Shown here: positions 10,321 through 52,849 of the stretch, piece after piece | Numbering within the stretch: the first letter of the stretch is position 1 | Layout of the letters: each line of letters begins with the position of its first letter | NCBI GenBank assembly: GCA_013815345.1 | Contig: JACDGK010000001.1 | Span: forward strand, 102,434 to 166,433 | DNA: 64,000 nt | DNA from: Patescibacteria group bacterium | GTDB taxonomy: Bacteria; Patescibacteriota; Minisyncoccia; Phycocordibacterales; Phycocordibacteraceae | Reading direction: 5' to 3' | The notes under the pieces: generated by a model | Told to the model about the DNA's origin: nothing | What the model saw: only the letters and a program-made list of their open reading frames with translations | Databases searched by the model: none | Position numbers and translations under genes: made by a program

Positions 10321-10936
10321 GTTTCTGTAGCTTATTCCTTAAATTATTAATATGCACGTCCATAACGCGGCTTAGTGGATTGAAAGAGAAATCCCACAAG
10401 TGATCGATAATCTTTTGTCGTCCGAGCACTTCTCCTGGATGCTGCATAAAATACTCGAGAATTCTGAATTCTTTGAGAGTGAGTGGAATCTTTTTGCCGG
10501 CGAGATACACTTCTTGCGAAGCGGGCTTCAACGTGAGCTCACCGACGATGAGCTCAGGTGGCAATGTTTCGCGCGATCGCCGAGAGAGTGCACGAACGCG
10601 TGAAAGCAATTCCTCAAAAGAAAATGGTTTTACGAGATAATCGTCGGCACCGCTATCGAGACCTTGCACTTTGTCACTAACCGTATCTTTTGCTGTAAGC
10701 ATGATGATCGGCGTCATGACGGCACGCTCGCGAAGCGAGCGTGCTATCGAAATGCCATCTTTTCCGGGAAGCGCAATATCGAGGATCAGGAGGTCGTAAT
10801 CCATTTTTCCTAGCAAGGCGCGTTTTTCTCCCTCAATTCCATCAGGAACCGTATCTGCGGCATATCCCTCTTGTTCAAAGCCCCGCTTTAGAGATTCCGC
10901 GAGTTTTACATTGTCTTCTATGATCAGCAGGCGCAT
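10262..10936 (-). CDS. OmpR-family response regulator
   Basis: Receiver domain MRLLIIEDN...DLLILDIALPG...TAKD plus a winged-helix C-terminal domain (RVMDVHINNLRNKL). Confidence 0.9.
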   Translation of the reverse strand: MRLLIIEDNVKLAESLKRGFEQEGYAADTVPDGIEGEKRALLGKMDYDLLILDIALPGKDGISIARSLRERAVMTPIIMLTAKDTVSDKVQGLDSGADDYLVKPFSFEELLSRVRALSRRSRETLPPELIVGELTLKPASQEVYLAGKKIPLTLKEFRILEYFMQHPGEVLGRQKIIDHLWDFSFNPLSRVMDVHINNLRNKLQKHDESITIETVRGIGYRLSP

Positions 10937-10995
10937 ATAGCTACCATAGTGTAGTCATGTAAAGTTCTCGTAAAGGAGACGATAACGATAAATGT

Positions 10996-11421
10996 ATGTT
11001 TATAAGGTATGGTAAGCGAATGAAACGATTCCTGAGATATGTAGCCGTGACCCTACCAACCTTCCTGCTCGATCTGGGTTTGCTTGTCTTGCTCACACAG
11101 GTCTTTTCAGTGAATTACGTTCTTGCCACGGGAATTGCTTTTATCGTCGCAACGACAGCCAACTATTTTCTCAGTCGACGCTTCGTTTTTATGGGTTCGC
11201 ACCGTTCTTTTTCACTAGGATATGTATATTTTCTTACCATCGCACTCGTCGGCCTTTTTACCGTTACCTCTTCTATATGGGTACTCGTCGGCCTTTTACA
11301 CTTTAATTATATTTTGAGTCGCCTCCTTATAGCCTTCGTCGAAGGTATGTGGAATTACCTCATGAACCTCTACCTCAATTTCAAAGTCAGTGGGAAACCC
11401 GTTTCTGAAGTAAACGCATAA
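10996..11421 (+). CDS. GtrA-family membrane protein
   Basis: 141 aa, 4 TM helices, GtrA-like conserved region (ATGIAFIVATTANYFLSRRFVF). Confidence 0.75.
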   Translation: MFIRYGKRMKRFLRYVAVTLPTFLLDLGLLVLLTQVFSVNYVLATGIAFIVATTANYFLSRRFVFMGSHRSFSLGYVYFLTIALVGLFTVTSSIWVLVGLLHFNYILSRLLIAFVEGMWNYLMNLYLNFKVSGKPVSEVNA

Positions 11422-11444
11422 AAATGCCGAATCTCCCAAATCGT

Positions 11445-11515
11445 GTTGCGGAGGCCGGAATCGAACCGACTGTTTCGTCCCGTATTTACTAGAGTTCGAT
11501 TCCGACCCGCATCAT
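11445..11515 (-). repeat. tRNA-like fragment: a direct repeat of the 3' 27 nt of the tRNA(CAU) gene at 16012, plus a 10-bp T-loop-like hairpin
   Basis: CGTGTTGCGGAGGCCGGAATCGAACCGAC here versus CGTGTTGCGGGGGCCGGAATCGAACCGGC at 16012-16040 (27 of 29 match). The 5' half does not fold into a D-arm or anticodon arm. GGAATCGAAC and GTTCGATTCC form a 10-bp hairpin. Confidence 0.5.
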
Positions 11516-11670
11516 ATAAAGAATCTTCATCTTTTGCAGAGATTGATACCCTAGTAGTATTTATAATTCCCATAATTAAAAAGACCGCAGAGAATGCGAG
11601 GTCCGAGAATCCACGAATATTGGTAAATAATATAAAACAGCTCGCTATCTAATTTAGAAGCGAGCTGTTG

Positions 11671-12189
11671 TTAGATACTTGAAATAACATTGATCCAATC
11701 ATGCACAACAATAACGTGACTGAGCGTTTCTGTGTGATTGAATTCTTCCACTTCACTTTGCTGTGGATGAAATAGAAAGAGATTTTTGACTTTCTCGACG
11801 AAGAAATTGAGTACTTCAAGACGATCATCTACCACGATGGTCGTACCTCGATTAGTCAAAGTCTCTTGATTAATGTACTGCGTTTTGTCACGCCCTGTAG
11901 TGGAACGGATTACTCGATCTGGAGAAATTCCTGTTCGTTCGAAGAAACTGTGTGTCATGAGCCAGGCCTGAATCTTTTGCTCAGCAACATTAGTTGCATT
12001 ATATGCAACAGTAATGTTTCCGGAGAATTTATCACAGATAATACGCAAACTCTCCATTGCATTAGGAACTTCAGGGATCGCATTGTAATTAATTGTGTGA
12101 AAGTTCTCGGGGCTAGTATTTGTAAGCCAGTGGGCAATAATTACATTTCCCAAGTCCACAATAGCTCCCTCATTGATAGGTTCATACAT
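11671..12189 (-). CDS. HAD-like 5'(3')-deoxyribonucleotidase-family protein with a degenerate motif I
   Basis: The GRDKT...TIVVDD block resembles NT5C-type deoxyribonucleotidases (RDKT...LIDD). Motif I reads VDLGNV rather than DxDGV. Confidence 0.5.
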   Translation of the reverse strand: MYEPINEGAIVDLGNVIIAHWLTNTSPENFHTINYNAIPEVPNAMESLRIICDKFSGNITVAYNATNVAEQKIQAWLMTHSFFERTGISPDRVIRSTTGRDKTQYINQETLTNRGTTIVVDDRLEVLNFFVEKVKNLFLFHPQQSEVEEFNHTETLSHVIVVHDWINVISSI

Positions 12190-12247
12190 TGTCGTACCTC
12201 CAATACCAGTCTGGACTAATTATCCCATATAAATTAAAATTTGCAAC

Positions 12248-13291
12248 ATGGAATCTTCAACTGGAGATGTATCTCTGCCAATCAGTCTAGGTACAAAAAA
12301 TGGAAAAATAGTTGTGGTTATGGCACGAATTCCAAGAGTGGGTCTGCATGAACCATTTTTTATAGACTCGTTAGATGGCCGTTTTCATTTAGCCCACATA
12401 AGCAAGAGTATCGAATCAGAGCAAGACGTTTTGGTTAGACCTCTGCACTATGATGAAAATGATGATCGTATTGAATTTATTCTCATTGAAAAATTTATCT
12501 CCAAGTATTTATCGATCGAGACGGTAAGTGATAAGACTCATTTCATATTTCATATGTCTAGATGTGGTTCTACATTGGCAGCTCAAATGCTTTCTACAGT
12601 GAATAGATTTTATGTACTTTCTGAACCAACTATTATAAATGAGATATTAGATCCGAATTTAGAATTACCAAACGGTATTTCGAAGTGGGATCTTTTAAAA
12701 GGAGTCATAAATGCTATTTCCATTTTCAAGCCAGATCATTGTGAGCATCTTTTCATTAAATTCCGTAGTTGGAACATCTTTTTTCTAAGTGAAATATTAA
12801 GCCTCTATCCAGGAATCACTTGGTCATTTATTCATCGTAATGGGTTGGAAGTTATGGAATCAATATTACGCGATCAGCCTGGATGGATACGGGGGCGAGA
12901 TAGAAATATATCTTTCTTTTCAAAAGTGCTCGGCATTAGTGAAGATGAAATTCGACTAATGAGTAGCAGTGAATATTCTGCTCGCATACTTGGTGCTATA
13001 TGTAAGGAAGCCTCAATAAATAGAAGTGGTAATAGTGCTTATATTTCTTATGAAGATATTCCCAATAGATTGCCTGAATTGTTAGAGAAACCATTTAAAT
13101 TGAAACTAACTTCTGATGAGAGAGGCAGTATGATTAAGCGCTCAACATTCTACTCAAAAGACAAATTGAGTAAGAAGGTGTTCACTGAAGACAGTTTAGA
13201 GAAGCGTAGCTCTATGAGCGACTTAGATATAATTAATGCTACTCGATTTATTGAGATAGAAAGAAAGGGTATATTCACAAAAACAATATGA
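12248..13291 (+). CDS. sulfotransferase-family protein
   Basis: 347 aa. HMSRCGSTLAAQML resembles the PAPS 5'-phosphosulfate-binding loop of Stf0-type sulfotransferases (xRSGST). AT-rich codon usage. Confidence 0.65.
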   Translation: MESSTGDVSLPISLGTKNGKIVVVMARIPRVGLHEPFFIDSLDGRFHLAHISKSIESEQDVLVRPLHYDENDDRIEFILIEKFISKYLSIETVSDKTHFIFHMSRCGSTLAAQMLSTVNRFYVLSEPTIINEILDPNLELPNGISKWDLLKGVINAISIFKPDHCEHLFIKFRSWNIFFLSEILSLYPGITWSFIHRNGLEVMESILRDQPGWIRGRDRNISFFSKVLGISEDEIRLMSSSEYSARILGAICKEASINRSGNSAYISYEDIPNRLPELLEKPFKLKLTSDERGSMIKRSTFYSKDKLSKKVFTEDSLEKRSSMSDLDIINATRFIEIERKGIFTKTI

Positions 13292-13800
13292 AAGAATCTA
13301 AATTAAGTGACGAACTATACATGCAGCGTTGCATCGAACTAGCCGCAAAAGGATCAAAATCAATGGATTTCCCTTTTGGTTCCTTGTTAGTACATCATGA
13401 CTCAATTATAGCTGAGTTTCATAACGAAGCATTGCTTACTAATGAAATATACAAACACGCAGAAATGCTTGTGTTAATACACGCGCAGAAGGAACTTTCC
13501 AGTAGTCAACTTAAGAAAGCAACGCTTTATTGCACCGTCGAGCCTTGTGCGATGTGTTCTTTCGCCATACAGGAACTTGGAATTTCTAGAGTAGTATTTG
13601 GCTTGCGCTCACCAATAATGGGTGGTTATTCTAAATGGAAAATACTTCAAGATGAAGAGCTGGGGGCCACATTCCCTAATACATTTGGAAAAGCACCGGA
13701 AATATCGCCTGGCGTTCTAAGAGATTCTGTAGCAGATGGGTGGAAAAAATGGAATCCAGAGAAATGGGCGCGATTCTTAGAAAAGGGAGTCTTTACTTAA
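13288..13800 (+). CDS. cytidine/deoxycytidylate (TadA/guanine-deaminase-like) zinc deaminase
   Basis: CDA zinc motifs HAEMLVL and TVEPCAMC. The ATGA start overlaps the sulfotransferase stop, so it looks like an operon. Confidence 0.85.
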   Translation: MKESKLSDELYMQRCIELAAKGSKSMDFPFGSLLVHHDSIIAEFHNEALLTNEIYKHAEMLVLIHAQKELSSSQLKKATLYCTVEPCAMCSFAIQELGISRVVFGLRSPIMGGYSKWKILQDEELGATFPNTFGKAPEISPGVLRDSVADGWKKWNPEKWARFLEKGVFT

Positions 13801-13805
13801 ACCAA

Positions 13806-14450
13806 TTAGAATTCTCCAAAATGTGCGTGGTCATTCCAACCTAGCACATACCAGCCTGACTCATGAAGTTCGAAGGATAGGTCATATTGAATAGTCGTTA
13901 TACCAGTATTATCTGGCACAAATGTGCGCTTAACTTCATAAAACAATTCAGGCGTAATCTTATCACCAAAGATTACCAGAGCTAGAACCATTTTAAGAAT
14001 TTCACCATGTGTCACCACTAAAATATTTCTCTCTTCCTTTTTAGAGAGGAACTCAAGCATTTTCTGTGCCCTGTCTCTAATTTGAAAATAATCCTCCTCA
14101 TCTGAATGACGATTATCAGGGTCAGTAAAAGTACTTTTCACGATTTTCATAATTTCCTTCACTTCAGGCTCGGACTTACATCGCCCGCGAACTGCTGTAG
14201 GACGATTCACTTCTTCAAAAATTGGATTCTCATTTACTGCATGCCCAGTTACCAAAGATATTGCTTGCGCCGTTTGCGAAGCGCGCATCATAGGACTACT
14301 GAAAATAATATCAATCGGGATTGACTTGAATCTATTAGCCAAGACTTCAGCCTGTTTTAAACCGCGCTCAGATAATTCAATTGTAGGGAGCTGAAATTGA
14401 TCAGTCTCATTCCCTTCAGTACTCCCATGTCGCACAAAATATATATTCAT
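13806..14450 (-). CDS. histidine phosphatase (phosphoglycerate-mutase superfamily)
   Basis: N-terminal RHG motif (VRHGSTEGN) and a later H (VTHG). Confidence 0.8.
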   Translation of the reverse strand: MNIYFVRHGSTEGNETDQFQLPTIELSERGLKQAEVLANRFKSIPIDIIFSSPMMRASQTAQAISLVTGHAVNENPIFEEVNRPTAVRGRCKSEPEVKEIMKIVKSTFTDPDNRHSDEEDYFQIRDRAQKMLEFLSKKEERNILVVTHGEILKMVLALVIFGDKITPELFYEVKRTFVPDNTGITTIQYDLSFELHESGWYVLGWNDHAHFGEF

Positions 14451-14455
14451 AATTT

Positions 14456-15691
14456 TTATGCTAAATCATATCTCCCATTAATAATATTCTTGGTTGCTCC
14501 TGAAACGTCAGTAATTATCTCAGAAATTATATATTGAACCAGTACAGTATCTATAGATTCCACTGAATTTACGATAACTGACCAAGGTTCATCAATAGGC
14601 TTGTCTGTCTGACTAATAATAAAAACTTCATTGGGTGTACCTGTTTTATTATATATCTCCTGGGCTATATCCCATGCCATTACAGAATATAATTTCCCAG
14701 CGTGATATTGGGGATTTTTTCCACTCAAACCTTCTATACTAAACGGGCGACGTGACGATATAACTCCTCCTAACCGATTTCCCCGTGCGACCTGGCCTTC
14801 ATCCCCAGATTCGACACAGGAGCCAGTATAAAGCATGTAAAGAAGGTCGTCTCTTTGGCCGTCCGCAGTATTTAGCGTAAAATTTACGTTAAACATTTCA
14901 ATTTTTGAAACTACTCCACGTATTATGGAGCGAACTATTTCCAAATTCTCTTGGTATTGATCAATTGTTGCAACTTCGGTTGATATCTGAGGTACACATA
15001 ATGTAAGCATTACTTCCTGTGCATTTCTAACAGCCATTACCTTTATATCTGAGCCGAGCCAATGATATTTTTTCTTAGAAATATCAGAATTGAGTTCTCG
15101 TTCTACTTCAAGAACAAGAATCTCTAATGGAGTATAGGGAGCCCATCCACAACCCACCGCCGTATCATTCGCTACAGGTCTTATGTATTCAGGTAAATCT
15201 GTAAGTTTACCAGGACGAAATCTTGAGTATGCAGATGAACGTGCATTCGTAGAATTTATAGGCTGTAGGCCTCGTGTTGTATTTGCAGTTATCTCAATCA
15301 TTAACCTGCAATTTGTTAGAAAATCAAAGTTCTTAAGTTCAGTCTCCAAAAAATTTGCTGCAGTATCAATTAAAGCATCACGATACTGAACCTTTTTGCC
15401 TCCAACCTCTGGAGTTGCCCTGCCATTTATTAGCAACCGTATAGGTGAGACAAAGTTCCCACCACCAAAACGGACATCGCATTTCCCACCCATCAATGAT
15501 AATTTGTCGAATTGGTGCCTCAATATGGTTCCAAATTGGTCTATACAAATCTGCGAATAGGTTCGAGAAAGCAGTTCAGCCAGTTTGTCAGCGAGGGTGT
15601 CAGGGTGACCTCTTCCTTTGCGTTCAATAACTTCAAAATCAGCTTTGGACAGATCTTTTAAGTCATTTACAAATCGAATATTCGATACCAT
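14456..15691 (-). CDS. archaeal-type S-adenosylmethionine synthetase (methionine adenosyltransferase)
   Basis: Collinear with archaeal MAT: ERKGRGHPDTLAD, FGTIL.H..D...L.GG...FGGG..VSPI.LL.GRAT, ANDT.VG.G.AP, GDEGQVARGNR.G.I...RP.S.E..SGKNP.H.GK.Y. It is not the bacterial MetK fold. Confidence 0.9.
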   Translation of the reverse strand: MVSNIRFVNDLKDLSKADFEVIERKGRGHPDTLADKLAELLSRTYSQICIDQFGTILRHQFDKLSLMGGKCDVRFGGGNFVSPIRLLINGRATPEVGGKKVQYRDALIDTAANFLETELKNFDFLTNCRLMIEITANTTRGLQPINSTNARSSAYSRFRPGKLTDLPEYIRPVANDTAVGCGWAPYTPLEILVLEVERELNSDISKKKYHWLGSDIKVMAVRNAQEVMLTLCVPQISTEVATIDQYQENLEIVRSIIRGVVSKIEMFNVNFTLNTADGQRDDLLYMLYTGSCVESGDEGQVARGNRLGGVISSRRPFSIEGLSGKNPQYHAGKLYSVMAWDIAQEIYNKTGTPNEVFIISQTDKPIDEPWSVIVNSVESIDTVLVQYIISEIITDVSGATKNIINGRYDLA

Positions 15692-15910
15692 ATGTACATT
15701 CTAACAGATATTTAGATTCAAAAAATCTATCTAGATCTTAATTCACTCACATTCAGTATAATCTGAATTATGTAATCCGACCTACTAGGGTAGATAAATA
15801 TTGGTTCCAGGCATTTCGATTCCGGTCCCCGAATTCATCAGAACACAAATCATTTGTATTGGAGATAACAGGAATCGAACTGAGAATACGCTGCAAATGC
15901 TTAAGCACAG

Positions 15911-15943
15911 AAAAAGCCTGCAAGGTATTTGCAGGCTTTTTCT
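15911..15943. terminator. bidirectional hairpin terminator
   Basis: AAAAAGCCTGCAAGGTATTTGCAGGCTTTTTCT: a perfect 10-bp stem with A- and T-tracts on both sides. Confidence 0.5.
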
Positions 15944-16014
15944 GGTGAACGAGGGGCCGGTACTGTACTGGGTTTGATGCCTGTCGGTACTGGTTCCTCG
16001 TGTCACAACCGTGT

Positions 16015-16084
16015 TGCGGGGGCCGGAATCGAACCGGCGTCTGGAGGTTATGAGCCTCCCGAGGTACCTCTCCTCTACCCCGCT
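16015..16084 (-). tRNA. tRNA with a CAU anticodon (Met, fMet or Ile2; not resolved)
   Basis: Cloverleaf on the minus strand: D-arm GAGG-AGAGGTA-CCTC, anticodon arm GGAGG-CTCATAA-CCTCC, T-arm GCCGG-TTCGATT-CCGGC, acceptor GCGGGG/CCCCGC. CCA is not encoded. Base pair 1-72 is ambiguous (possible mismatch). Confidence 0.75.
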
Positions 16085-16189
16085 ATATAAATCGTAGTGA
16101 AGCTTCGCATTTACCATCCCGCCATGGAATGGCCTCAATCCTCTACCCCGCTATACTCATATACTACCTATGTTTTGCCTCAAATCAAG

Positions 16190-34579: not shown

Positions 34580-34605
34580 GTTTAAAGTGATAATTTGTAT
34601 GGATT

Positions 34606-34692
34606 GGAGACGTGGCTGAGTGGTCGAAAGTACCTCACTGCTAACGAGGCAGGGGTTAACGCCCCTCGAGGGTTCGAATCCCTCCGTCTCCG
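34606..34692 (+). tRNA. tRNA-Ser (anticodon GCU)
   Basis: GGAGACG acceptor, D-arm, anticodon loop CUGCUAA, a long variable arm CAGGGGTTAACGCCCCTC, T-arm GAGGG-TTCGAAT-CCCTC, acceptor CGTCTCC, discriminator G. Confidence 0.9.
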
Positions 34693-36209
34693 CAGATAGA
34701 AACTTCGAGTTCGGACAGAGCCGTGCCGCAAAGCGGCGTGGCAGAATGGGCGGACAGAAAATCCCGCCGCGTAGCGGCGAATTGGCTCGGCGTGGGGAAT
34801 CCGAAATGCGGGGATTTGTCACGAACCGAAGGGTTCGTTCCGATTTTTTGCACGAATGATTTGATTTGGTACAAATCATCCGATTGAGACAAAAAATCGG
34901 CTTGTTTCATATCCAAAATCCATTCCCGCAGGGGTTCGACCCGATTCTTTCTCCCGCGTTCAAAATCTTTCTTTTTCTCTTGCAAAGCGGCGAGAGAGCG
35001 CATGAGCACGTCCTTGCGCTTCAAGTACATCTCTTTCGGTATATCGCCATCTAGGTACGCAGATACCAGCTTTTCCATGCGCTCCTCGCTCGCTTTGATA
35101 TTGTCGGAAAGATTTTGAACCTCGCTTTGCGACACCTCAACTTCCTCGCGCTCCCATTCTTTCACTTTCGCCAACATCCAATCCGTATAGCGATCGCAAA
35201 GCGAGATTGTTTGAAGCCGTGCCTTTATTTTGTCGGCAAGGTCGGCCTCGCGGACATACGGTTGCGAGCAGCGGCCGCGTTTCTTGGAACACCGATAGTA
35301 GCGATACTTCGTACCCCAGCGATTGACCGCCCACTGCGCGGAAATCATGCCGCCGCACTCGCCACAGCGGAATAGCCCGACAAGCGGAAAATCATGCTTC
35401 ACCTTGCGCGTGCGCGGCCGCTCCTTGCCCGCCACGACCTTCTGCACGGCTTCAAACAATGCGGGAGTTAGAATCGGCTCAAAGTTTCCATCAAACCATT
35501 CCTGACCGTGCTTCACGAATCCGATATACACGCGATGCGTCAAAAGCCGTTTGATGGAAACTTTGGCAAGTGGCGTTCCGTTTGAAGTCATCACATTCAA
35601 GTCCGCCAAAAATTGCGACAACGAAACGAGAGTATGCGACCCTTTGGCGTATTCTTCGTACGCGAGGCGCACGATACGCGCGTTCGTCGGATGCGGTTCA
35701 ATATTGCGAATACGCGGGTTATTTTGATAGCCAAAGGGTGCGCGATTGAGCCACTCGCCCCGACGCAATTTTTGGCGGACGCCGCGCTTGATATTTTCGG
35801 ACAGATTGTCGCTGTAATATTTAGATTGCCCGAACGCCACTTGCAACATAAATAGTCCCTGCGGGGTCGGTTCAAACCAAAATGTCGGGAAGCGCAAAGA
35901 CACCACCTTACGCGTGTCTACGGCGTATATGATGCGCCCGCCGTCAATGCTGTTGCGAGCCAATCTATCGGGATGCCACGCCAATATGCCCACGCCGTCC
36001 ATTGATTCAATGCGGGCCATCATTTCGCCGTACACCTCGCGCCCCGGTGTCTTTGCGCTTTTCGACTCTTGAAATTCCTCAAGAATTTCAAGATTTTCTT
36101 TACGCGCGATCTCCCGCAACTCAAACAGCTGCGCCTCGATGGACATGACTTGCCGGTCATCGTCCTCAGTGCTCTTACGCGCGTATAGAAAATATTTTGG
36201 CTTGTTCAT
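34656..36209 (-). CDS. large serine recombinase (resolvase/invertase catalytic domain, recombinase domain, zinc ribbon)
   Basis: N-terminal catalytic block YARKSTEDD...SIEAQ (Ser nucleophile), recombinase domain, Cys cluster CGECGG...C. The probable start is the Met at 36209, since the track's extra 33 N-terminal codons lie in the right IR. The frame runs through the left IR and stops only inside the antisense of the tRNA. Confidence 0.85.
   Translation of the reverse strand: MNKPKYFLYARKSTEDDDRQVMSIEAQLFELREIARKENLEILEEFQESKSAKTPGREVYGEMMARIESMDGVGILAWHPDRLARNSIDGGRIIYAVDTRKVVSLRFPTFWFEPTPQGLFMLQVAFGQSKYYSDNLSENIKRGVRQKLRRGEWLNRAPFGYQNNPRIRNIEPHPTNARIVRLAYEEYAKGSHTLVSLSQFLADLNVMTSNGTPLAKVSIKRLLTHRVYIGFVKHGQEWFDGNFEPILTPALFEAVQKVVAGKERPRTRKVKHDFPLVGLFRCGECGGMISAQWAVNRWGTKYRYYRCSKKRGRCSQPYVREADLADKIKARLQTISLCDRYTDWMLAKVKEWEREEVEVSQSEVQNLSDNIKASEERMEKLVSAYLDGDIPKEMYLKRKDVLMRSLAALQEKKKDFERGRKNRVEPLREWILDMKQADFLSQSDDLYQIKSFVQKIGTNPSVRDKSPHFGFPTPSQFAATRRDFLSAHSATPLCGTALSELEVSICGDGGIRTLEGR
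34689..34819. repeat. left 131-bp terminal inverted repeat (begins with CCGCA of the tRNA-Ser 3' end)
   Basis: Direct alignment with the reverse complement of 36234-36364. Confidence 0.85.
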
Positions 36210-36233
36210 ATTAGTTTTTGGATTGAAACAAGA

Positions 36234-36364
36234 GACAAATCCCCGCATTTCGGATTCCCCACGCCGAGCCAATTCGCCGCTTCGCGGCGGCATTTCCTGC
36301 CCGCCCATTCTGCCACGCCGCTTTGCGGCGCGGCTCTGTCCGAACTCGAAGTTTCTATCTGCGG
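36234..36364. repeat. right 131-bp terminal inverted repeat
   Basis: Reverse complement of 34689-34819. It produces mirrored spurious ORFs (36139..36375+ and 34478..34879-). Confidence 0.85.
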
Positions 36365-36587
36365 TGACATATTAGCCTTTGCTCGAACTCACTTCGCACG
36401 CGCCACGTGCGTGGTGGCTTGAGATTGAAGCGTACGCTCCGATCGCGTGGCGACTCTCTGAATCTCGCCACGCGCGGAGTACCGCGCGTCCGCCCTCTCT
36501 TTTGCCGTTTCCCCATTCTTATTTTTTTGCGGGGGGGGATTGAATTTGGAATGGACGGCAGAAACGAGAGATTGGGCTTAAATCTAA

Positions 36588-36629
36588 TAATCCCATTTTG
36601 GGATTATACCATAAAAGGATATATCCTTT
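36588..36629 (+). promoter_or_regulatory. two perfect palindromes upstream of the C-protein gene (candidate C-boxes/operators)
   Basis: TAATCCCATTTTGGGATTA and AAGGATATATCCTT lie immediately upstream of the XRE gene start at 36636. Confidence 0.4.
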
Positions 36630-36635
36630 ATCCAC

Positions 36636-36857
36636 ATGAGCAAGTCCGTTTTCTCGAAAGACTATAAAGAAATCATAGAACGCTTGAAAACGGCGCGTAT
36701 TGAGGCTGGACTTGCACAGCAGGCGGTTGCGGACAAACTCGGTAAACCCCAATCTTTTATCTCAAAAATTGAATCCGGCGAAAGACGGCTTGATGTGGCG
36801 GAGATCAAAAAGTTTTCCGTAATCTACAAAAAAGATGTTTCCTTTTTCATAAAGTGA
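36636..36857 (+). CDS. XRE-family HTH regulator (restriction-modification controller-protein-like)
   Basis: 73 aa. HTH QQAVADKLGKPQSFISKIESGER. It directly precedes the nuclease gene. Confidence 0.75.
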   Translation: MSKSVFSKDYKEIIERLKTARIEAGLAQQAVADKLGKPQSFISKIESGERRLDVAEIKKFSVIYKKDVSFFIK

Positions 36858-36858
36858 T

Positions 36859-37473
36859 ATGGCTAAGAAGGTAACCAATCATCCAAAAACAAGCAAAGGA
36901 GTAGTTTGGCAAAAACTTCTCGACGCTCTTTATGCTGATATCGGCAATGTCGTTTCGAACCAGAAACTTATAAAAGTTTCTGGACAACACAACTATGCTC
37001 GTCGTGTAAGAGAATTACGAGCAGAGGGTTGGGATATTGTTTATAGCGCAAGCCCAACTGGATATATTTTGCGTTCAACTAATAAAACCGCCAAAAACGC
37101 TGATGTTTATATCAATTTTAAATTAAGACAAAAGATTTTAGAAAGGGATCAATATATTTGTCAGCTCTGTGGACATAGGGCGAATGAAAAATACGCTGAT
37201 GGTGAATCAGTAAAGCTTGAAGTTGACCACATCCTTCCTCTCAAACAAGGCGGGAAAACTGTTGAGGAAAACCTTTGGACTTTATGTACTCGTTGTAATG
37301 CTGGGAAGAAATCACTTTTGGATTATCCCGAAACGGTTAAAAATAGGATAATCTCGGTTAATCTTCCAGATGATATAAGAGGAAAACTAAGCGAGTTGTC
37401 TCTCAAGAGGGGTGAGACCATCAACAGCCTCATTTTGGACGCTATACGCAGAGGGATTAAGAAATTGAAATAA
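36859..37473 (+). CDS. HNH-family restriction endonuclease
   Basis: HNH motif CQLCGH...EVDHILP...GG...N...LCTRCN. Starts 2 nt after the C-protein stop. Confidence 0.8.
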   Translation: MAKKVTNHPKTSKGVVWQKLLDALYADIGNVVSNQKLIKVSGQHNYARRVRELRAEGWDIVYSASPTGYILRSTNKTAKNADVYINFKLRQKILERDQYICQLCGHRANEKYADGESVKLEVDHILPLKQGGKTVEENLWTLCTRCNAGKKSLLDYPETVKNRIISVNLPDDIRGKLSELSLKRGETINSLILDAIRRGIKKLK

Positions 37474-38487
37474 TTCTTTTCCTACAGCAAGGGCCAAACG
37501 GCACGGCACGGCGTTACCGATTTGTTTGGCGACTTGGACATTTGAACCCACGAAAACATAATCATCGGGAAATGTTTGTAATCGTGCCGCCTCTCGAATT
37601 GTTATAGGTCTGTGCGCTTCAGGATGCAGATAACAACCTTTCTCCGGTTTAAAAAATTCGGTTCTGATAGTGAGAGATGGTTTATCCCATTCCAATCTAC
37701 CGAAGACATCCGTGGAGCCAGTCTTTTTCCGCTTCCAACAGTCAGGTGTCAATTCCAAAGGCAAATCAAATCTATTGCCTCCAGCCGGAATTGATTTGTA
37801 TCTCTTTAAAGACGTGGGGGTAGGGTTTCTTCCAATGTGCCAATCTTTTCCGGTTGGTTCTAATGGCAAGTCTGCGATCGCATCTTTGACGGTAGCCCAA
37901 GTCTGTAGATGGGCGTTTAAAAGATTAAAATTATCAGCAGAAGTATGTGTTGGTTGAGGGTGATTAGGTATTCCAATCCTACTGCCAAAGATGATGGCCC
38001 GCTTTCGTTTTTGTGGAACTCCGTATTCGACGGCATGTAAGACTTTTTCTCTTACTTCGTATCCTAAATCCTCCGCCATTTTCTTTATGCTGGGGAATTC
38101 ATCACTTGTCAGGAGTTGGGGGACATTTTCCATCAAAAACACCTTCGGTTTAAAGAAAGCAACGAAGCGCATATATTCTCGCCACATTTGATTACGAGGG
38201 TCGTCCTTTTTTTGTTTGCCCAACCGACTGAAACCCTGACATGGCGGCCCCCCTACAATTAAATCAACTGTCCTAGTTCCAATTCGTTTTGAAAACTCTT
38301 CTAAATCCACGGATGTAATATCTCCTTCATGCACAAGCATGTCTTTATGGTTTGCGCGTAAGGTTTCGCAGCTCCAATGATCCCAATCAGTTGCAGCAAG
38401 GGGTTTAAATCCGGCTTGCTGAATTCCGATAGACAAGCCGCCAGCTCCAGCAAACAAGTCAATGAAAGTTGGTTTTTTGTTGCTCAT
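37387..38487 (-). CDS. DNA (cytosine-5)-methyltransferase
   Basis: Motif I FIDLFAGAGG, motif IV GGPPCQGFS, motif VI ENV, motif VIII QKRKRAII. Convergent with the nuclease gene, with an 87-nt 3' overlap. Confidence 0.9.
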   Translation of the reverse strand: MSNKKPTFIDLFAGAGGLSIGIQQAGFKPLAATDWDHWSCETLRANHKDMLVHEGDITSVDLEEFSKRIGTRTVDLIVGGPPCQGFSRLGKQKKDDPRNQMWREYMRFVAFFKPKVFLMENVPQLLTSDEFPSIKKMAEDLGYEVREKVLHAVEYGVPQKRKRAIIFGSRIGIPNHPQPTHTSADNFNLLNAHLQTWATVKDAIADLPLEPTGKDWHIGRNPTPTSLKRYKSIPAGGNRFDLPLELTPDCWKRKKTGSTDVFGRLEWDKPSLTIRTEFFKPEKGCYLHPEAHRPITIREAARLQTFPDDYVFVGSNVQVAKQIGNAVPCRLALAVGKELFQFLNPSAYSVQNEAVDGLTPLERQLA

Positions 38488-39643: not shown

Positions 39644-41719
39644 TTATGCGTGTATCGCTTTCTTTATCGGGATACTAAAAGAAAAAGTCGAACCTTCTCC
39701 TTTGACGCTTTCGACCCAGATCTTACCCACTTCCCGCTTTACGATCTCACTTGAAATGTATAGACCAAGTCCGAGACCCGGGAAAGTCTCGCTTGTAGGC
39801 CCATCGACTCGGAAAAATTGCTCAAAGACCTGATCGATATTCTCTTTGGCGATGCCTAATCCGAAATCCTGAACGGAAAGAGTCGTCACTTTGCCCTTAG
39901 AGAAGGTTGAAACAATAATTTTCTTACCATTTGGGGAGTACTTTATTGCGTTTGTAATAAAATTCGTCAGAACTTGTCCCAGCCTTTCTCGGTCGCCATA
40001 TACTTTTTTCATTGAAGTGAGGACCACGATTATTTTATGTTTTTCTGACAATCGTTGCATTTCTTCCACTCTTTCGTTAACGAGTTCGTTAAAATCGAAA
40101 TAGTCTTCATGAAATTGCAATTGGCCGGAATTAATTTTGGTTACATCTAATAGATCGGCGATCAAGTCATTTAATCTGTTTATTTGAGTATCCATTTTAC
40201 TAAGCATTTCTGCCGCTTTGACGTCTCCTTTACTTTGAAAAATCTTCTCGAGGACTTGCCCATATGTCTTAATGCTCGTAACAGGAGTCTTGAGTTCATG
40301 CGATACAATACCTAGAAAACTGTCTTTCTGTTGCTCTAGTTCTTTTTGTTTCGTGATATCGCTTGCCGCACCAAACCACTCGATGATCTTTCCTTTCTTA
40401 TCAAGGATGGGTATAGCACGTGAAAATATCCATCCATACGTACCATCTACTTGCTTAATCTTGTATTCCAATTGGAAAAAGCTTTTTGTACGTATAGACT
40501 TTTTAATAGCCTCCTTGACCTGCAATTTATCGTCCGGATGTGTATATTTTTCTAACCAATTAGTAATGGGCTCCTCCGTATCGATAAGAAAATTTTTACC
40601 ACGAAGTTCCTGCATCTCTTTCCAATCAGGACTCATCCGATATACGACCTCCGACGTTGCATTAACAAGGGCACGAAAACGCTCTTCACTCTTTCTTACT
40701 TTCTCATCAGATTCTTTGCGAGCTGTAATATCACTGTAATTTATGACAATGGCTTTTACGTCCGGATCCTCCAACAAATTGGACATTACCGACTCTACCC
40801 AAATAGCGTACCCACCTTTATGCATAATCTGATATTTGGTTCGTTCTACACTTCCTGGTTTTTTAAGCAATTTTTCGAAAAGTTTGGTAACTAATTTTCG
40901 TTCATTGGGTGGCACTAATTCGAAAGGATTAGACAATTTTTTAAACTCTTCAGGTGTATAACCCATAACCTTCTTTGTCGACTCACTGGCGTGCAGGACC
41001 TTTCCTTTTCTGTCCACCAGAGCAATAGCATCTGCGTTTTTTTCAGTCAATACTCTAAATCGTTTTTCAGAAGAAGTTATTTCTTCCATAAAAAGATTGT
41101 GGTACGTGAATGCTATTTTCGAAGATAATATGTCGCAATAGCTGCCGATGATCTGGCTAAATTCGAATAAGTCTTGGGTGGAAAGTCCTTTGAGCAAACC
41201 TGTTTCTTCTAGTTTCTTCCAAATTGCTTGCTTCAAAAAAATGGTTCCATCGACCGCTTCCTCTATGGTAAGGCCATCCTTGTTCGCATCTGTTGCGACT
41301 TCTATGCCAAGATCCTGGAAGATTTTAGTCCCTTTTTCGAAATCATCAAGATTATTCGCAATGGCTCTAATCATCTTGGTATGAATCTTCCTATACTTAG
41401 TGACATGTTCTTTAGGCAGAGAATCGCCACCGATAAGATGCGTATGCTGGGAAGTAGCCGATGTTTGTATGGCGATCTCATTCGCCTTAAGAAGTTGTTT
41501 TATCTTGGTAAATTTTTTTTGCTCCTCTTTAATGCTTGGATTTGAGGTCAATTTGGACAATGCTTCTCTGGTAAATCGCCAATCGCCACGAGAACCGATC
41601 TTTACTCCATTAAGCTGGTTGGTTTTTGCCCACTTGCGTATAGTCGCAGGATTCACACCCAAAAAAGCTGCTGAGCGCTGAACATTAAGTAGCTTTGGTT
41701 CTATTTTATTTATTGACAT
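39644..41719 (-). CDS. sensor histidine kinase with an N-terminal excisionase/MerR-like HTH and tandem PAS domains
   Basis: HTH AAFLGVNPATIRKWAK, PAS repeats, H-box SHELKTPVTSI, HATPase G-boxes DFGLGI and GLGLYI. 691 aa. Confidence 0.9.
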   Translation of the reverse strand: MSINKIEPKLLNVQRSAAFLGVNPATIRKWAKTNQLNGVKIGSRGDWRFTREALSKLTSNPSIKEEQKKFTKIKQLLKANEIAIQTSATSQHTHLIGGDSLPKEHVTKYRKIHTKMIRAIANNLDDFEKGTKIFQDLGIEVATDANKDGLTIEEAVDGTIFLKQAIWKKLEETGLLKGLSTQDLFEFSQIIGSYCDILSSKIAFTYHNLFMEEITSSEKRFRVLTEKNADAIALVDRKGKVLHASESTKKVMGYTPEEFKKLSNPFELVPPNERKLVTKLFEKLLKKPGSVERTKYQIMHKGGYAIWVESVMSNLLEDPDVKAIVINYSDITARKESDEKVRKSEERFRALVNATSEVVYRMSPDWKEMQELRGKNFLIDTEEPITNWLEKYTHPDDKLQVKEAIKKSIRTKSFFQLEYKIKQVDGTYGWIFSRAIPILDKKGKIIEWFGAASDITKQKELEQQKDSFLGIVSHELKTPVTSIKTYGQVLEKIFQSKGDVKAAEMLSKMDTQINRLNDLIADLLDVTKINSGQLQFHEDYFDFNELVNERVEEMQRLSEKHKIIVVLTSMKKVYGDRERLGQVLTNFITNAIKYSPNGKKIIVSTFSKGKVTTLSVQDFGLGIAKENIDQVFEQFFRVDGPTSETFPGLGLGLYISSEIVKREVGKIWVESVKGEGSTFSFSIPIKKAIHA

Positions 41720-42787: not shown

Positions 42788-43315
42788 TTACCGCACTGTT
42801 GGAATTGGTCTTCCATCTGGCAAATGTCCGCGTACGTTTGGCTCGTCATACGGGCCTCCTTCCAAAATTGCTGTGGGTAAAGTGCCGGTTCGCACGCTGT
42901 GAGCAAAAATCGAGCCATCCTCATTCATCGTTCCTACGACAAATACTTGTTCACCAACCGAAAGCTGATCTGAGCTGATTGTCGTCGGGGTTGAAGACGC
43001 CGTCGCGAAATGTTGAATGGTCGTTGTCGCAGAAACGGTGACTACTTTTGTCGTATCGTCAGAGAACGTAAGGATAAATCCATTATCATTGAAGATTTCA
43101 ATCGATCCTCGTACATACCCGCTAGAATTTCCAATAGTATTTTCTTCCGAAAGATAATTTGTCGGTGCAGGAGACGTCAGAGCTTGTCCGAATCCGAGTC
43201 CTGTTGCTACCTGCGGGTTAGAAAATACATACAGTATCGCAGCCACAATGAGTAGCAGGAGAACAAGAATGCTGATAACTATCTGTGGTCTTTTCATGGT
43301 GCGAGCCACGAACAC
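42788..43315 (-). CDS. membrane-anchored hypothetical protein
   Basis: N-terminal TM helix and a Thr/Ser-rich extracellular part. Confidence 0.55.
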   Translation of the reverse strand: MFVARTMKRPQIVISILVLLLLIVAAILYVFSNPQVATGLGFGQALTSPAPTNYLSEENTIGNSSGYVRGSIEIFNDNGFILTFSDDTTKVVTVSATTTIQHFATASSTPTTISSDQLSVGEQVFVVGTMNEDGSIFAHSVRTGTLPTAILEGGPYDEPNVRGHLPDGRPIPTVR

Positions 43316-49084: not shown

Positions 49085-49158
49085 CCATCCTTAGCTCAGT
49101 TGGTTAGAGCATCGAGCTTATACCTCGAGGGTCCCTGGTTCGAGTCCAGGAGGATGGA
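49085..49158 (+). tRNA. tRNA-Ile with a UAU anticodon
   Basis: CCATCCT acceptor, D-arm GCTC-AGTTGGTTA-GAGC, anticodon arm TCGAG-CTTATAC-CTCGA, T-arm CCTGG-TTCGAGT-CCAGG, discriminator A. Confidence 0.8.
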
Positions 49159-49182
49159 CTACGAAAGTGACGTGTGTGAAAA

Positions 49183-52432: not shown

Positions 52433-52849
52433 GGGGGTGACCGGTTTTGACGGTCTGCCCTTTGAGAAACGTGCGACGCGATGGAATCTTGCTGACCATC
52501 TGAATCTCGCAAGCACCCAATACCTGCCGACAAAACTGTTGCAGGCGCAAAGGTATCTCCGTACTTTACGGCAAAGAACTTTGCGTTCGCTTACGTGTAA
52601 GCTTGAGCCTCGGCTCGTTTAGCGTAACGACGTTCACTCTTCCCGGGTTCTCATAGCCGGTCGAATGGGCGAAATCTTCTATGGGATCGATAGCCGTGCG
52701 CCCACACGTGCTGTTCAGACTTCGGGCGTAGACAGAAAAGGTTTCGCTGACATTTCTACTTTTCTGTTGAAACACTAATAGCAGCTACGTGTCGTAGACT
52801 CGTTCTCAAAGCCAGATTCGGACGGGGGATCATACCCCCCACCTCCACC
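52433..52849 (+). ncRNA. ssrA: tmRNA (transfer-messenger RNA)
   Basis: It starts immediately 3' of smpB. 5' GGGGGTGACCGG... pairs with 3' ...CCCCCCACCTCCACC. The acceptor has a G3:U70 wobble. The T-arm-like stem is GGGGG-ATCATAC-CCCCC. Confidence 0.75.

Follow-up and report, generated by a model that had tools for sequence, protein, structure and literature searches.

A putative integrase-less islet at the tRNA-Met gene of a Patescibacteria group bacterium, with a predicted PAPS-type sulfotransferase and an archaeal-type methionine adenosyltransferase

The stretch of DNA analyzed here (the window, 64 kb from a Patescibacteria group bacterium; GenBank assembly GCA_013815345.1, contig JACDGK010000001.1) carries, between positions 11439 and 16036, a low-GC segment of five genes that abuts a tRNA-Met gene and is enclosed by two copies of the end of that tRNA. 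We read this segment, with a probability of roughly 60%, as a horizontally acquired, integrase-less islet resembling a cis-mobilizable element (CIME), with a cargo that would be an accessory cluster for sulfation from 3'-phosphoadenosine 5'-phosphosulfate (PAPS) equipped with its own S-adenosyl-L-methionine (SAM) synthetase. CIMEs have been defined as elements that keep attL and attR and lack genes for integration and transfer (PMC6323972); the segment has retained ends of both types, and integration and transfer genes are absent from it. The window was compared with loci of relatives (labeled L001, L002, L082, etc.), the closest of which at this site is L001 (GatA 71% identical), and the best matches of the window GatA were all Parcubacteria/Paceibacterota-like metagenome-assembled genomes with an identity of no more than 71%. 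In addition, about 30 loci homologous to the sulfotransferase cluster were mapped with the window proteins.

The tRNA-Met boundary and its conserved element

The tRNA-Met gene (anticodon CAT; 16013 to 16084, minus strand) was called by both ARAGORN and Rfam (tRNA, 58.9 bits, E value of 3e-11), with its start at 16013 or 16014, and is intact and intron-free, forming the proximal boundary of the islet. A repeat search found its 3' part in a direct repeat with a proximal copy (attL-type core) at 16007 to 16036 and a distal copy (attR-type core) at 11439 to 11468, both on the minus strand and hence in the same orientation, which are 28/30 identical and lie 4.57 kb apart. The repeated sequence spans the whole T-arm, the 3' acceptor strand and 5 to 6 nt past the end of the tRNA. 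Between the two copies (11469 to 16012), the GC content falls to 0.383, compared with 0.476 (standard deviation of 0.024) in other segments of 4.57 kb (z = -3.9), making this the lowest-GC stretch of that size in the window. The GC content at third codon positions is also outlying, with values of 0.28 to 0.38 for the five islet genes against 0.49±0.055 (minimum of 0.39) for 25 other genes of the window. An earlier note on this DNA, made from the sequence letters, had described an AT-rich islet bounded by repeats of a tRNA 3' end and had seen in it the signature of tRNA-targeted integration; the description stands, with the coordinates of the repeat shifted by a few bases.

A chance match, or a decayed tRNA pseudogene with no insertion involved, might be suspected here given that T-arms are conserved among tRNAs and that several other T-arm-like fragments lie in the region, but this explanation is effectively refuted by the shuffles, the junction alignment and the composition. 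With up to three mismatches allowed (≤3), the 30-mer matched exactly two sites in the 64 kb and had matches in 0/100 dinucleotide-preserving shuffles (0 expected by chance). The match includes the acceptor strand specific to tRNA-Met and 5 nt of trailer, the same junction was found in four other genomes (alignment A6), and the change in composition falls exactly at the repeat.

A conserved boundary element of ~300 nt (~250 to 300 nt) is copied at the junctions. Along the direction of the tRNA, its components begin with the tRNA core, an element here called DE and a terminator hairpin, and continue with a direct T-arm fragment, a spacer of ~40 to 55 nt and an inverted T-arm fragment, after which comes the cargo; the far end consists of an inverted acceptor/T-arm fragment, a conserved spacer (AAATACGGGRCGAAANNGTCG) and the tRNA core again. 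DE (15945 to 16012, minus strand; defined by alignment A3, motif search and alifold) is located just downstream of the tRNA. The first ~33 of its ~68 nt (GCAACACGGTTGTGAC.C.AGGAACCAGTACCG) show almost no variation among L002 (three copies), L082 and L092 (three copies), across genomes whose proteins are only 50 to 70% identical, and it holds an imperfect inverted repeat, invariant in its arms and variable at its center, that would be compatible with a recombinase site. In our reading, DE opens an attP-like P' arm. RNAalifold proposed a hairpin for DE in which the pairs are invariant, with zero covariation, and since pairs that never vary neither support nor exclude an RNA, DE was treated as a DNA-level site. 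Rfam searches at permissive thresholds returned only the tRNA and terminator look-alikes, with no family covering DE or the junction hairpins.

Beyond DE, a perfect hairpin (15908 to 15944; 16-bp stem, 5-nt loop, A- and T-run flanks), detected by repeat search and found at the same position in A3, is a predicted bidirectional intrinsic terminator and part of the repeated boundary element; the Rfam Thr_leader matches at these positions reflect the terminator only. The remainder of the putative P' arm would be a pair of T-arm-like fragments in opposite orientation (15808 to 15882, with 15868 to 15882 on the minus strand and 15808 to 15831 on the plus strand), which repeat search placed ~40 nt apart here and locus comparison found at the corresponding place in L082 and L092. 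The distal junction (11469 to 11515, minus strand) comprises an inverted acceptor/T-arm fragment (11494 to 11512) and a 25-nt spacer, is homologous to junctions of L001, L092 (two copies) and L082 with the common motif ..GGAATCGAACTCTAGYAAATACGGGRCGAAANNGTCG.. (A6), and was read as an attP-like P arm. Past the distal core, similarity to the tRNA locus ends right after ..CGCAACACG, where the native flank, the end of gtrA, begins. A hairpin with a T-run at 11639 to 11666 (minus strand; read from the sequence), 3' of the HAD-like gene described below, is a probable terminator.

In the window, the tRNA adjoins the downstream half of the boundary element (16012 to ~15808), the opposite end of the islet has the upstream half (11515 to 11439), and the internal boundaries of the arrays of relatives carry the whole unit. 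Overall, the junctions align across four genomes (A3 and A6). We read the two ends as attL and attR because these halves fit the integration of a long attP (P arm, core, P' arm), and the same layout would also follow from repeated integration at a regenerated tRNA.

The gene order LigA-GatC-GatA-195aa-tRNA-Met is conserved across Parcubacteria, and synteny halts at the tRNA in all relatives. L001 has an exact 24-nt repeat of the tRNA end ~1 kb downstream of the tRNA, and its cargo between the repeats is a glycosyltransferase fragment and a 119-aa open reading frame (ORF) that by eye looks HIT-like. In L002 and L092, which have an intron in the tRNA, three to four copies of the boundary unit with a degenerate tRNA 3' end separate unrelated cassettes; the second cassette of L092 (2241 to 11340) holds a seven-gene version of the module together with a UvrD-like helicase and a HAD_2 hydrolase. 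In GCA_964404565.1 (L082/L174), all five genes recur in the window layout and with the same boundary elements, abutting the same tRNA-Met beside LigA-GatC-GatA. Two other genomes have the cluster at tRNA-Met enclosed by the same repeats, most have it elsewhere, and it is missing within 10 kb of the L002 site, the L001 site being filled by its other cargo. This sequence comparison marks the tRNA-Met 3' end as a hot spot of recombination in the Parcubacteria lineage studied. The earlier note had held that the same gene order in related genomes, with normal composition and no repeat, would make the segment core metabolism. The order was indeed found at the same tRNA in GCA_964404565.1, but the module there has lower GC than its flanks and the tRNA-end repeats are present, so that a shared order does not make the region core.

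Several other features of this site were observed. The same tRNA-Met gene is split in relatives (L002, 13380 to 13675; L010, ~10800 to 11050; L092, 823 to 1147; L174, 9416 to 9703) by a group-I-intron-like insertion of ~250 to 290 nt after the 5' strand of the anticodon stem, and for this reason ARAGORN misses the gene there, the genes of the window and L001 being uninterrupted. Adjoining tRNA-Met in five relatives (L174, 8646 to 9320; L092, 25 to 780; L010; L007; L004) is an ORF of 224 to 251 aa with an N-terminal helix-turn-helix and a LAGLIDADG-like motif (LGLGLYWGEGYK), possibly encoding a free-standing homing endonuclease; at this place in the window is a 108-aa ORF unrelated to it. The first 17 nt of the window tRNA-Met region (TATAGCGGGGTAGAGGA, minus strand, 16071 to 16087) are exactly repeated at 16139 to 16155, and the ~50 nt between the copies are conserved with L001 (GAGGCYATTCCATRGCGGGATGGYAAATGCGAAGC), forming an element upstream of the intron-free tRNA-Met (16085 to 16155). 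Just past the cassette array of L002 (18543 to 19457), fragmented ORFs contain an IS200/IS605-type Y1 transposase motif (YDLKYHLVWTPKYR).

Cargo genes and distribution of the cluster

The five genes occupy 11671 to 15691 and leave non-coding islet ends of ~200 and 320 nt, too short for a recombinase gene. The domain search found no recombinase domain among the five islet proteins either, in agreement with the earlier observation that no integrase lies between the repeats. The sulfotransferase and deaminase genes are on the plus strand, the start of the second overlapping the stop of the first by 4 nt (ATGA), while the methionine adenosyltransferase (MAT), the histidine phosphatase (HisPhos), which begins 5 nt past the MAT gene, and the HAD-like gene are on the minus strand. 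This operon layout and all five protein assignments had been proposed in the earlier note, and both hold, the assignments being confirmed by Pfam, PDB profiles and fold comparison.

The sulfotransferase-like protein (H0X32_00630) and the HAD-like protein (H0X32_00625), both with identical NCBI proteins from Patescibacteria group bacterium, required fold comparison because PDB-sequence profile searches with the two families were not significant. The first (12248 to 13291, plus strand; 347 aa) has a PAPS-type sulfotransferase fold with an additional N-terminal domain of ~95 aa and scores under Pfam Sulfotransfer_3 significance. In its 5'-phosphosulfate-binding (5'-PSB) loop, an invariant R105-C-G-S-T corresponds to PRSGTT of TPST1, and E126 is matched in the alignment to the Glu of the GEE motif of TPST1, the catalytic base. 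An invariant R197 and a nearly invariant S205 follow with the expected 8-residue spacing and, by TPST/SULT numbering and not by superposition, may be the 3'-phosphate-binding Arg...Ser motif. Fold and motifs together predict a PAPS-type sulfotransferase. The HAD-like protein (11671 to 12189, minus strand; 172 aa) has no match to Pfam NT5C or HAD. Its AlphaFold2 (AF2) model (pLDDT of 94.8) has a HAD fold, and Foldseek returned 3bwv as the best PDB match (E value of 4e-6) together with 5'(3')-deoxyribonucleotidases and GmhB, leading us to describe it as deoxyribonucleotidase-like. Motif I reads D12-L-G14-N15-V16 (DxGN) and is invariant in 30 homologues, so that the +2 Asp, the general acid/base, is absent, as expected from the degenerate motif pointed out previously; D12, G14, N15, K102, D121 and D122 are all invariant.

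The archaeal-type MAT, or SAM synthetase (14456 to 15691, minus strand; 411 aa), matches PF01941 over its full length (E value of 1e-92; 311 bits with a cut-off of 27, residues 12 to 406) and the archaeal MAT structures 7p82, 6s81 and 4l4q with E values of ~1e-66. HisPhos (13806 to 14450, minus strand; 214 aa) is a histidine-phosphatase superfamily enzyme (His_Phos_1, E value of 1e-30), and its best NCBIfam matches, alpha-ribazole phosphatase and others, are all far under their cut-offs. The deaminase (13288 to 13800, plus strand; 170 aa; dCMP_cyt_deam_1, E value of 4e-23) is a zinc deaminase of the cytidine deaminase (CDA) fold with HAE and PCxxC motifs. It has TadA 7cph (3e-19) and guanosine deaminase 7dbf as best PDB matches and retains the CDA fold, but at 77.9 bits it does not reach the TadA equivalog cut-off of 150.

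Sulfotransferase homologues, almost exclusively from uncultured bacteria, formed 479 clusters at 90% identity, and the full-length family comprised 42 clusters at 50% identity (E value of ≤1e-30). Exact look-ups with the MAT and sulfotransferase of the window matched no recorded contig. The gene adjoins an archaeal-type MAT in every close-family locus that was long enough (~25 Patescibacteria loci), and both the top MAT homologues and the HAD-like homologues share contigs with sulfotransferase homologues. The other partners are variable and include one or two HAD-like paralogues or, instead, a 340-aa protein (unk340), a G1PDH-like Fe-ADH_2 protein, the deaminase, the histidine phosphatase and a 200-aa protein (unk200). 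A further variable partner is a 250-aa fusion of an NMNAT-like nucleotidyltransferase with an adenosine 5'-phosphosulfate (APS) kinase domain (APS_kinase, E value of 6e-26), found within fuller clusters and beside distant sulfotransferase homologues. No Pfam or NCBIfam match was obtained for unk340 and unk200, nor a PDB match for unk340; by motif reading, we read the former as kinase-like and the latter as cupin-like. The window contains a five-gene short version without the APS-kinase fusion. That the genes recur as a unit in many Patescibacteria bears out the previous impression that they belong together, and a literature search found no description of the sulfotransferase-MAT cluster or of tRNA-Met islands in Patescibacteria, consistent with the remark that no described system had been recognized.

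Cluster GC was lower than flank GC in every locus examined. The neighborhoods vary, usually with no tRNA adjacent, and in two pairs of loci (L086/L087 and L091) a large serine recombinase is located within ~4 kb of the cluster. On an Allosphingosinicella-labeled contig of 61% GC (L173), the cluster forms a patch of 52 to 57% GC (MAT 63%, sulfotransferase 37% and unk340 38% identical) and has two Dcm genes, Vsr, DUF2357/PDDEXK_7 and SMODS as neighbors. Between loci where the sulfotransferases are 39 to 55% identical, the MATs are 53 to 84% identical. In the comparison of the window with GCA_964404565.1, the values were 84% for MAT, 86% for HisPhos, 70% for the deaminase, 65% for the HAD-like protein and 55% for the sulfotransferase, with 68% for both GatA and LigA. 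These unequal identities indicate that the module is mosaic, at least part of it being younger than the divergence of the genomes or unusually constrained. On the evidence of these loci, the cluster is accessory, mobile and patchily distributed, and not bound to a lineage.

Proposed function, mobility and competing explanations

In the pathway that we propose, the sulfotransferase would sulfate an acceptor with PAPS, for which larger versions of the cluster include an APS-kinase fusion of their own, and the MAT would feed SAM or an S-adenosyl compound into the same pathway. HisPhos, the HAD-like nucleotidase and the deaminase would clear the by-products, from 3'-phosphoadenosine 5'-phosphate (PAP) to AMP to adenosine to inosine, or related compounds. 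The observations behind this proposal are the sulfotransferase fold with its PAPS-type motifs, the obligatory pairing with a MAT homologue and the frequent linkage to the APS-kinase fusion; optional additions are phosphatases of the nucleotide type and a nucleoside/base-type deaminase. Of the contextual evidence, what most favors a real sulfotransferase is the Agrobacterium tumefaciens plasmid pAtG3_79b (L176; NZ_CP115844.1, 100988 to 122001), where a full-length homologue annotated as "hypothetical protein" (34.5% identical over 96% of the query) is found in a nonribosomal peptide synthetase (NRPS) cluster, 6 to 9 kb upstream of cysD, cysN and cysQ, all within 21 kb. This is an independent linkage to PAPS synthesis (cysD and cysN) and PAP removal (cysQ), and it hints at a purpose for the phosphatases in the Patescibacteria cluster. 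The NRPS cluster of the plasmid also holds pabB, chorismate mutase, a phosphopantetheinyl transferase (PPTase) and a TauD dioxygenase.

A PF01941 MAT 42% identical to that of the window was also observed in Bacillus velezensis (L171; GCA_003265765.1, 5196 to 18134), in a cluster with a MatE transporter, glycosyltransferases, myo-inositol-1-phosphate synthase, AP_endonuc_2, an extra seryl-tRNA synthetase (SerRS), UDP-galactopyranose mutase and an epimerase. This looks like a biosynthetic gene cluster, and its context suggests dedicated biosynthetic roles for bacterial PF01941 enzymes.

As for mobility, the islet ends would be the halves of an attP-like element of ~300 nt (P arm, core and P' arm), inserted at the tRNA-Met 3' end by a site-specific recombinase supplied in trans, and excision or re-mobilization would be possible only with a recombinase supplied in the same manner. 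No recombinase for the same att site was found in the window or in the arrays of relatives.

Several results weigh against this reading of the islet. The best NCBIfam score of the MAT is 307.5 bits with a cut-off of 481, and it falls under every NCBIfam MAT cut-off; it represents a divergent clade below the equivalog level, for which we infer SAM synthesis. The HAD-like protein, missing its general acid/base Asp, may not be a phosphatase at all, and the roles of the phosphatases and deaminase in PAP disposal are a supposition. The window module has no APS-kinase gene to account for a source of PAPS, and no methyltransferase or other SAM user to account for the MAT. Regarding mobility, no tyrosine integrase was found in 20 further ORFs of the window, and its sole recombinase is a 550-aa large serine recombinase located at a tRNA-Ser gene 19 kb away. 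Scans of viral contigs for DE, the P arm and the att core were empty, with no autonomous element using the same att; no excision junction was observed; and no empty site was found among the relatives, the closest of which has only 71% GatA identity.

The cluster might instead be core metabolism, with the MAT as the sole SAM synthetase of the cell, its partners in housekeeping adenosyl and sulfur salvage, and the repeats as relics of a fixed insertion. The MAT is strongly conserved (53 to 84% identity against 39 to 55% for the sulfotransferases), most loci have the cluster among ordinary genes with no tRNA or recombinase nearby, and a motif scan detected no bacterial MetK in the 64-kb window or in the fetched loci, a weak negative from a small sample. 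The kinase-like and cupin-like motif readings of unk340 and unk200, with no family match behind them, point in the same direction, as such folds occur also in methionine salvage. Set against this are the anomalous composition in the window and in every other locus examined, the absence of the module within 10 kb of the L002 site and the different cargo at L001, and its presence on an alphaproteobacterial contig, from bacteria expected to have MetK. Furthermore, the window and GCA_964404565.1 are more alike in MAT and HisPhos than in GatA and LigA, and a sulfotransferase family of 42 clusters is too small for a housekeeping function of a phylum. We consider core metabolism a doubtful account, one that nevertheless deserves some weight.

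Far less probable is a role in anti-phage defense or in manipulating the nucleotide or SAM pool, either through MetK-independent SAM that protects methylation-based immunity or through nucleotide depletion, the latter having been suggested in the earlier note. Islands at tRNA genes often carry defense genes, the L173 neighbors listed above are defense-like, and an N6_N4 methyltransferase (L086), AAA_15/21/23 (L088) and a UvrD-like helicase (L092) are found beside other copies. The deaminase core is also weakly similar to anti-phage dCTP deaminases, but the PADLOC-DB v2 match is limited to ~48 residues of the CDA core against a dCTPase model (E value of 1e-9), and the other four proteins gave one marginal match (E value of 0.024). 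PHROGs returned generic dCMP-deaminase matches for the deaminase and one family of unknown function for HisPhos. The MAT had no match in GenBank phages, and a viral-contig scan for the sulfotransferase family gave one distant match, without MAT (L090), so that the module is absent from the phage collections searched. Sensor, nuclease, NTPase and effector domains are all missing from the module, not every version of the cluster includes the deaminase and phosphatase, and a sulfotransferase fits no described defense logic. Manipulation of the nucleotide pool is, we infer, less likely than a sulfation pathway in which the phosphatases and deaminase act on adenosine-nucleotide by-products.

With regard to how the islet moves, exchange by homologous recombination after DNA uptake, with no integrase and with the boundary elements acting as homology anchors or as RNA-processing or terminator units, is a serious alternative, if an unlikely one. 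An integrase was found in 0/5 arrays examined, the repeated unit is long (~250 to 300 nt) and includes a terminator, and the halves of the module differ in divergence, pointing to a mosaic origin. In addition, the window encodes the type IV pilus components PilM, T2SSE and T2SSF, which are usually tied to DNA uptake in these bacteria. However, the similarity at the ends in the window and L001 stops sharply after the tRNA 3' end, as a site-specific crossover gives, the ~33 nearly invariant nucleotides with inverted symmetry resemble a protein-binding site, and similar arrays in Dehalococcoides are made by a serine recombinase (PMC3146451). A more speculative idea, which we hold to be improbable, is that the tRNA-Met of Parcubacteria harbors an undescribed integrase-less cassette system, each small cassette with its cargo and one element, shuffled among genomes by a recombinase supplied in trans or by DNA uptake. 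The sulfotransferase-MAT cassette would then make a new adenosyl-sulfur metabolite that these host-dependent bacteria might use on themselves or on hosts, candidates being a sulfated SAM-derived compound or transferase chemistry with a 3'-phospho-S-adenosyl donor from the APS-kinase-like fusion.

Elsewhere in the window, a second integrated element is probably located at 34589 to 38487. It includes a tRNA-Ser gene (GCT, 34606 to 34693) with its 3' end overlapped by the gene of the 550-aa large serine recombinase (34656 to 36308, minus strand), followed by an HNH endonuclease (36859 to 37473) and a C5 DNA methylase (37387 to 38487); a histidine kinase beyond the methylase (39644 to 41719) has a GC content of 0.396. 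A search downstream of the serine recombinase found no second copy of the tRNA-Ser 3' end, and 25 nt from the tRNA-Ser 5' end and upstream are repeated at 43153 to 43177 with 76% identity. The window also contains a tRNA-Ile with anticodon TAT (UAU) at 49085 to 49159, an anticodon seldom seen in bacteria (in most of them, a lysidine-modified CAU tRNA reads AUA), and a tmRNA of 417 nt (52433 to 52849) with a long predicted tag peptide, ADKTVAGAKVSPYFTAKNFAFAYV.

Significance and comparison with known systems

How Patescibacteria, with their tiny genomes, acquire and exchange genes is poorly known; the locus described here provides a concrete hot spot at the tRNA-Met 3' end for the swapping of small cassettes between copies of a conserved tRNA-derived element, and this element can serve as a search signature for the whole phylum. 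Knowing the product of the cluster would give functions to several "hypothetical" families and could reveal a sulfated metabolite relevant to a symbiotic lifestyle. If the MAT were the sole SAM synthetase, an essential function would be riding on a mobile cassette.

The closest parallels that we compared are the ssrA islands of Dehalococcoides, which form tandem arrays of low GC, carry 20-bp repeats of the end of ssrA with additional conserved sequence around them, and are integrated by the CcrB-like large serine recombinase DsiB; 15 of these islands lack an integration module and have been proposed as CIMEs (PMC3146451). As in those islands and in CIMEs, the islands described here have low GC and are located at the 3' end (T-loop region) of a structured-RNA gene. 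Also shared with Dehalococcoides are the bounds, formed by the gene and a 20- to 30-nt repeat of its end, the extra conserved sequence, the tandem accretion in some genomes and the many islands with no integration gene at all. They differ in that the target is tRNA-Met and not ssrA, no autonomous integrase-bearing sibling was found, the cassettes are very small (1 to 9 kb), and the element holds tRNA-derived inverted fragments and a terminator. With classical tRNA islands and prophages, the islet shares the intact tRNA at one end, the 3' repeat at the other and the foreign composition, but it has no integrase by the tRNA and no phage, conjugation or mobilization genes.

The arrays of L002 and L092, in which short promoterless-looking cassettes lie between conserved imperfect palindromes with no recombinase nearby, resemble integron arrays and clusters of attC sites lacking integron integrases (CALINs). 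Unlike these, however, the elements derive from a tRNA 3' end, there is no IntI, and the genes of the window islet are on both strands. An identity as integron attC was considered and rejected, as the arms (..ATCGAAC / GTTCGAT..) by eye misfit the R''/R' consensus, which we take to be RYYYAAC / GTTRRRY, and no integrase was found.

With regard to the cargo, the MAT is homologous to archaeal MATs (PF01941; 7p82, 6s81, 4l4q and 4hpv) over its full length (E values of 1e-66 to 1e-92) but is bacterial, located on a mobile cluster and below all the NCBIfam equivalog cut-offs. The sulfotransferase, for its part, is similar to TPST, Stf and CurM-ST sulfotransferases in its fold, 5'-PSB loop, aligned catalytic Glu and linkage to an APS kinase, and is set apart from them by its N-terminal domain of ~95 aa and its obligatory archaeal-type MAT neighbor.

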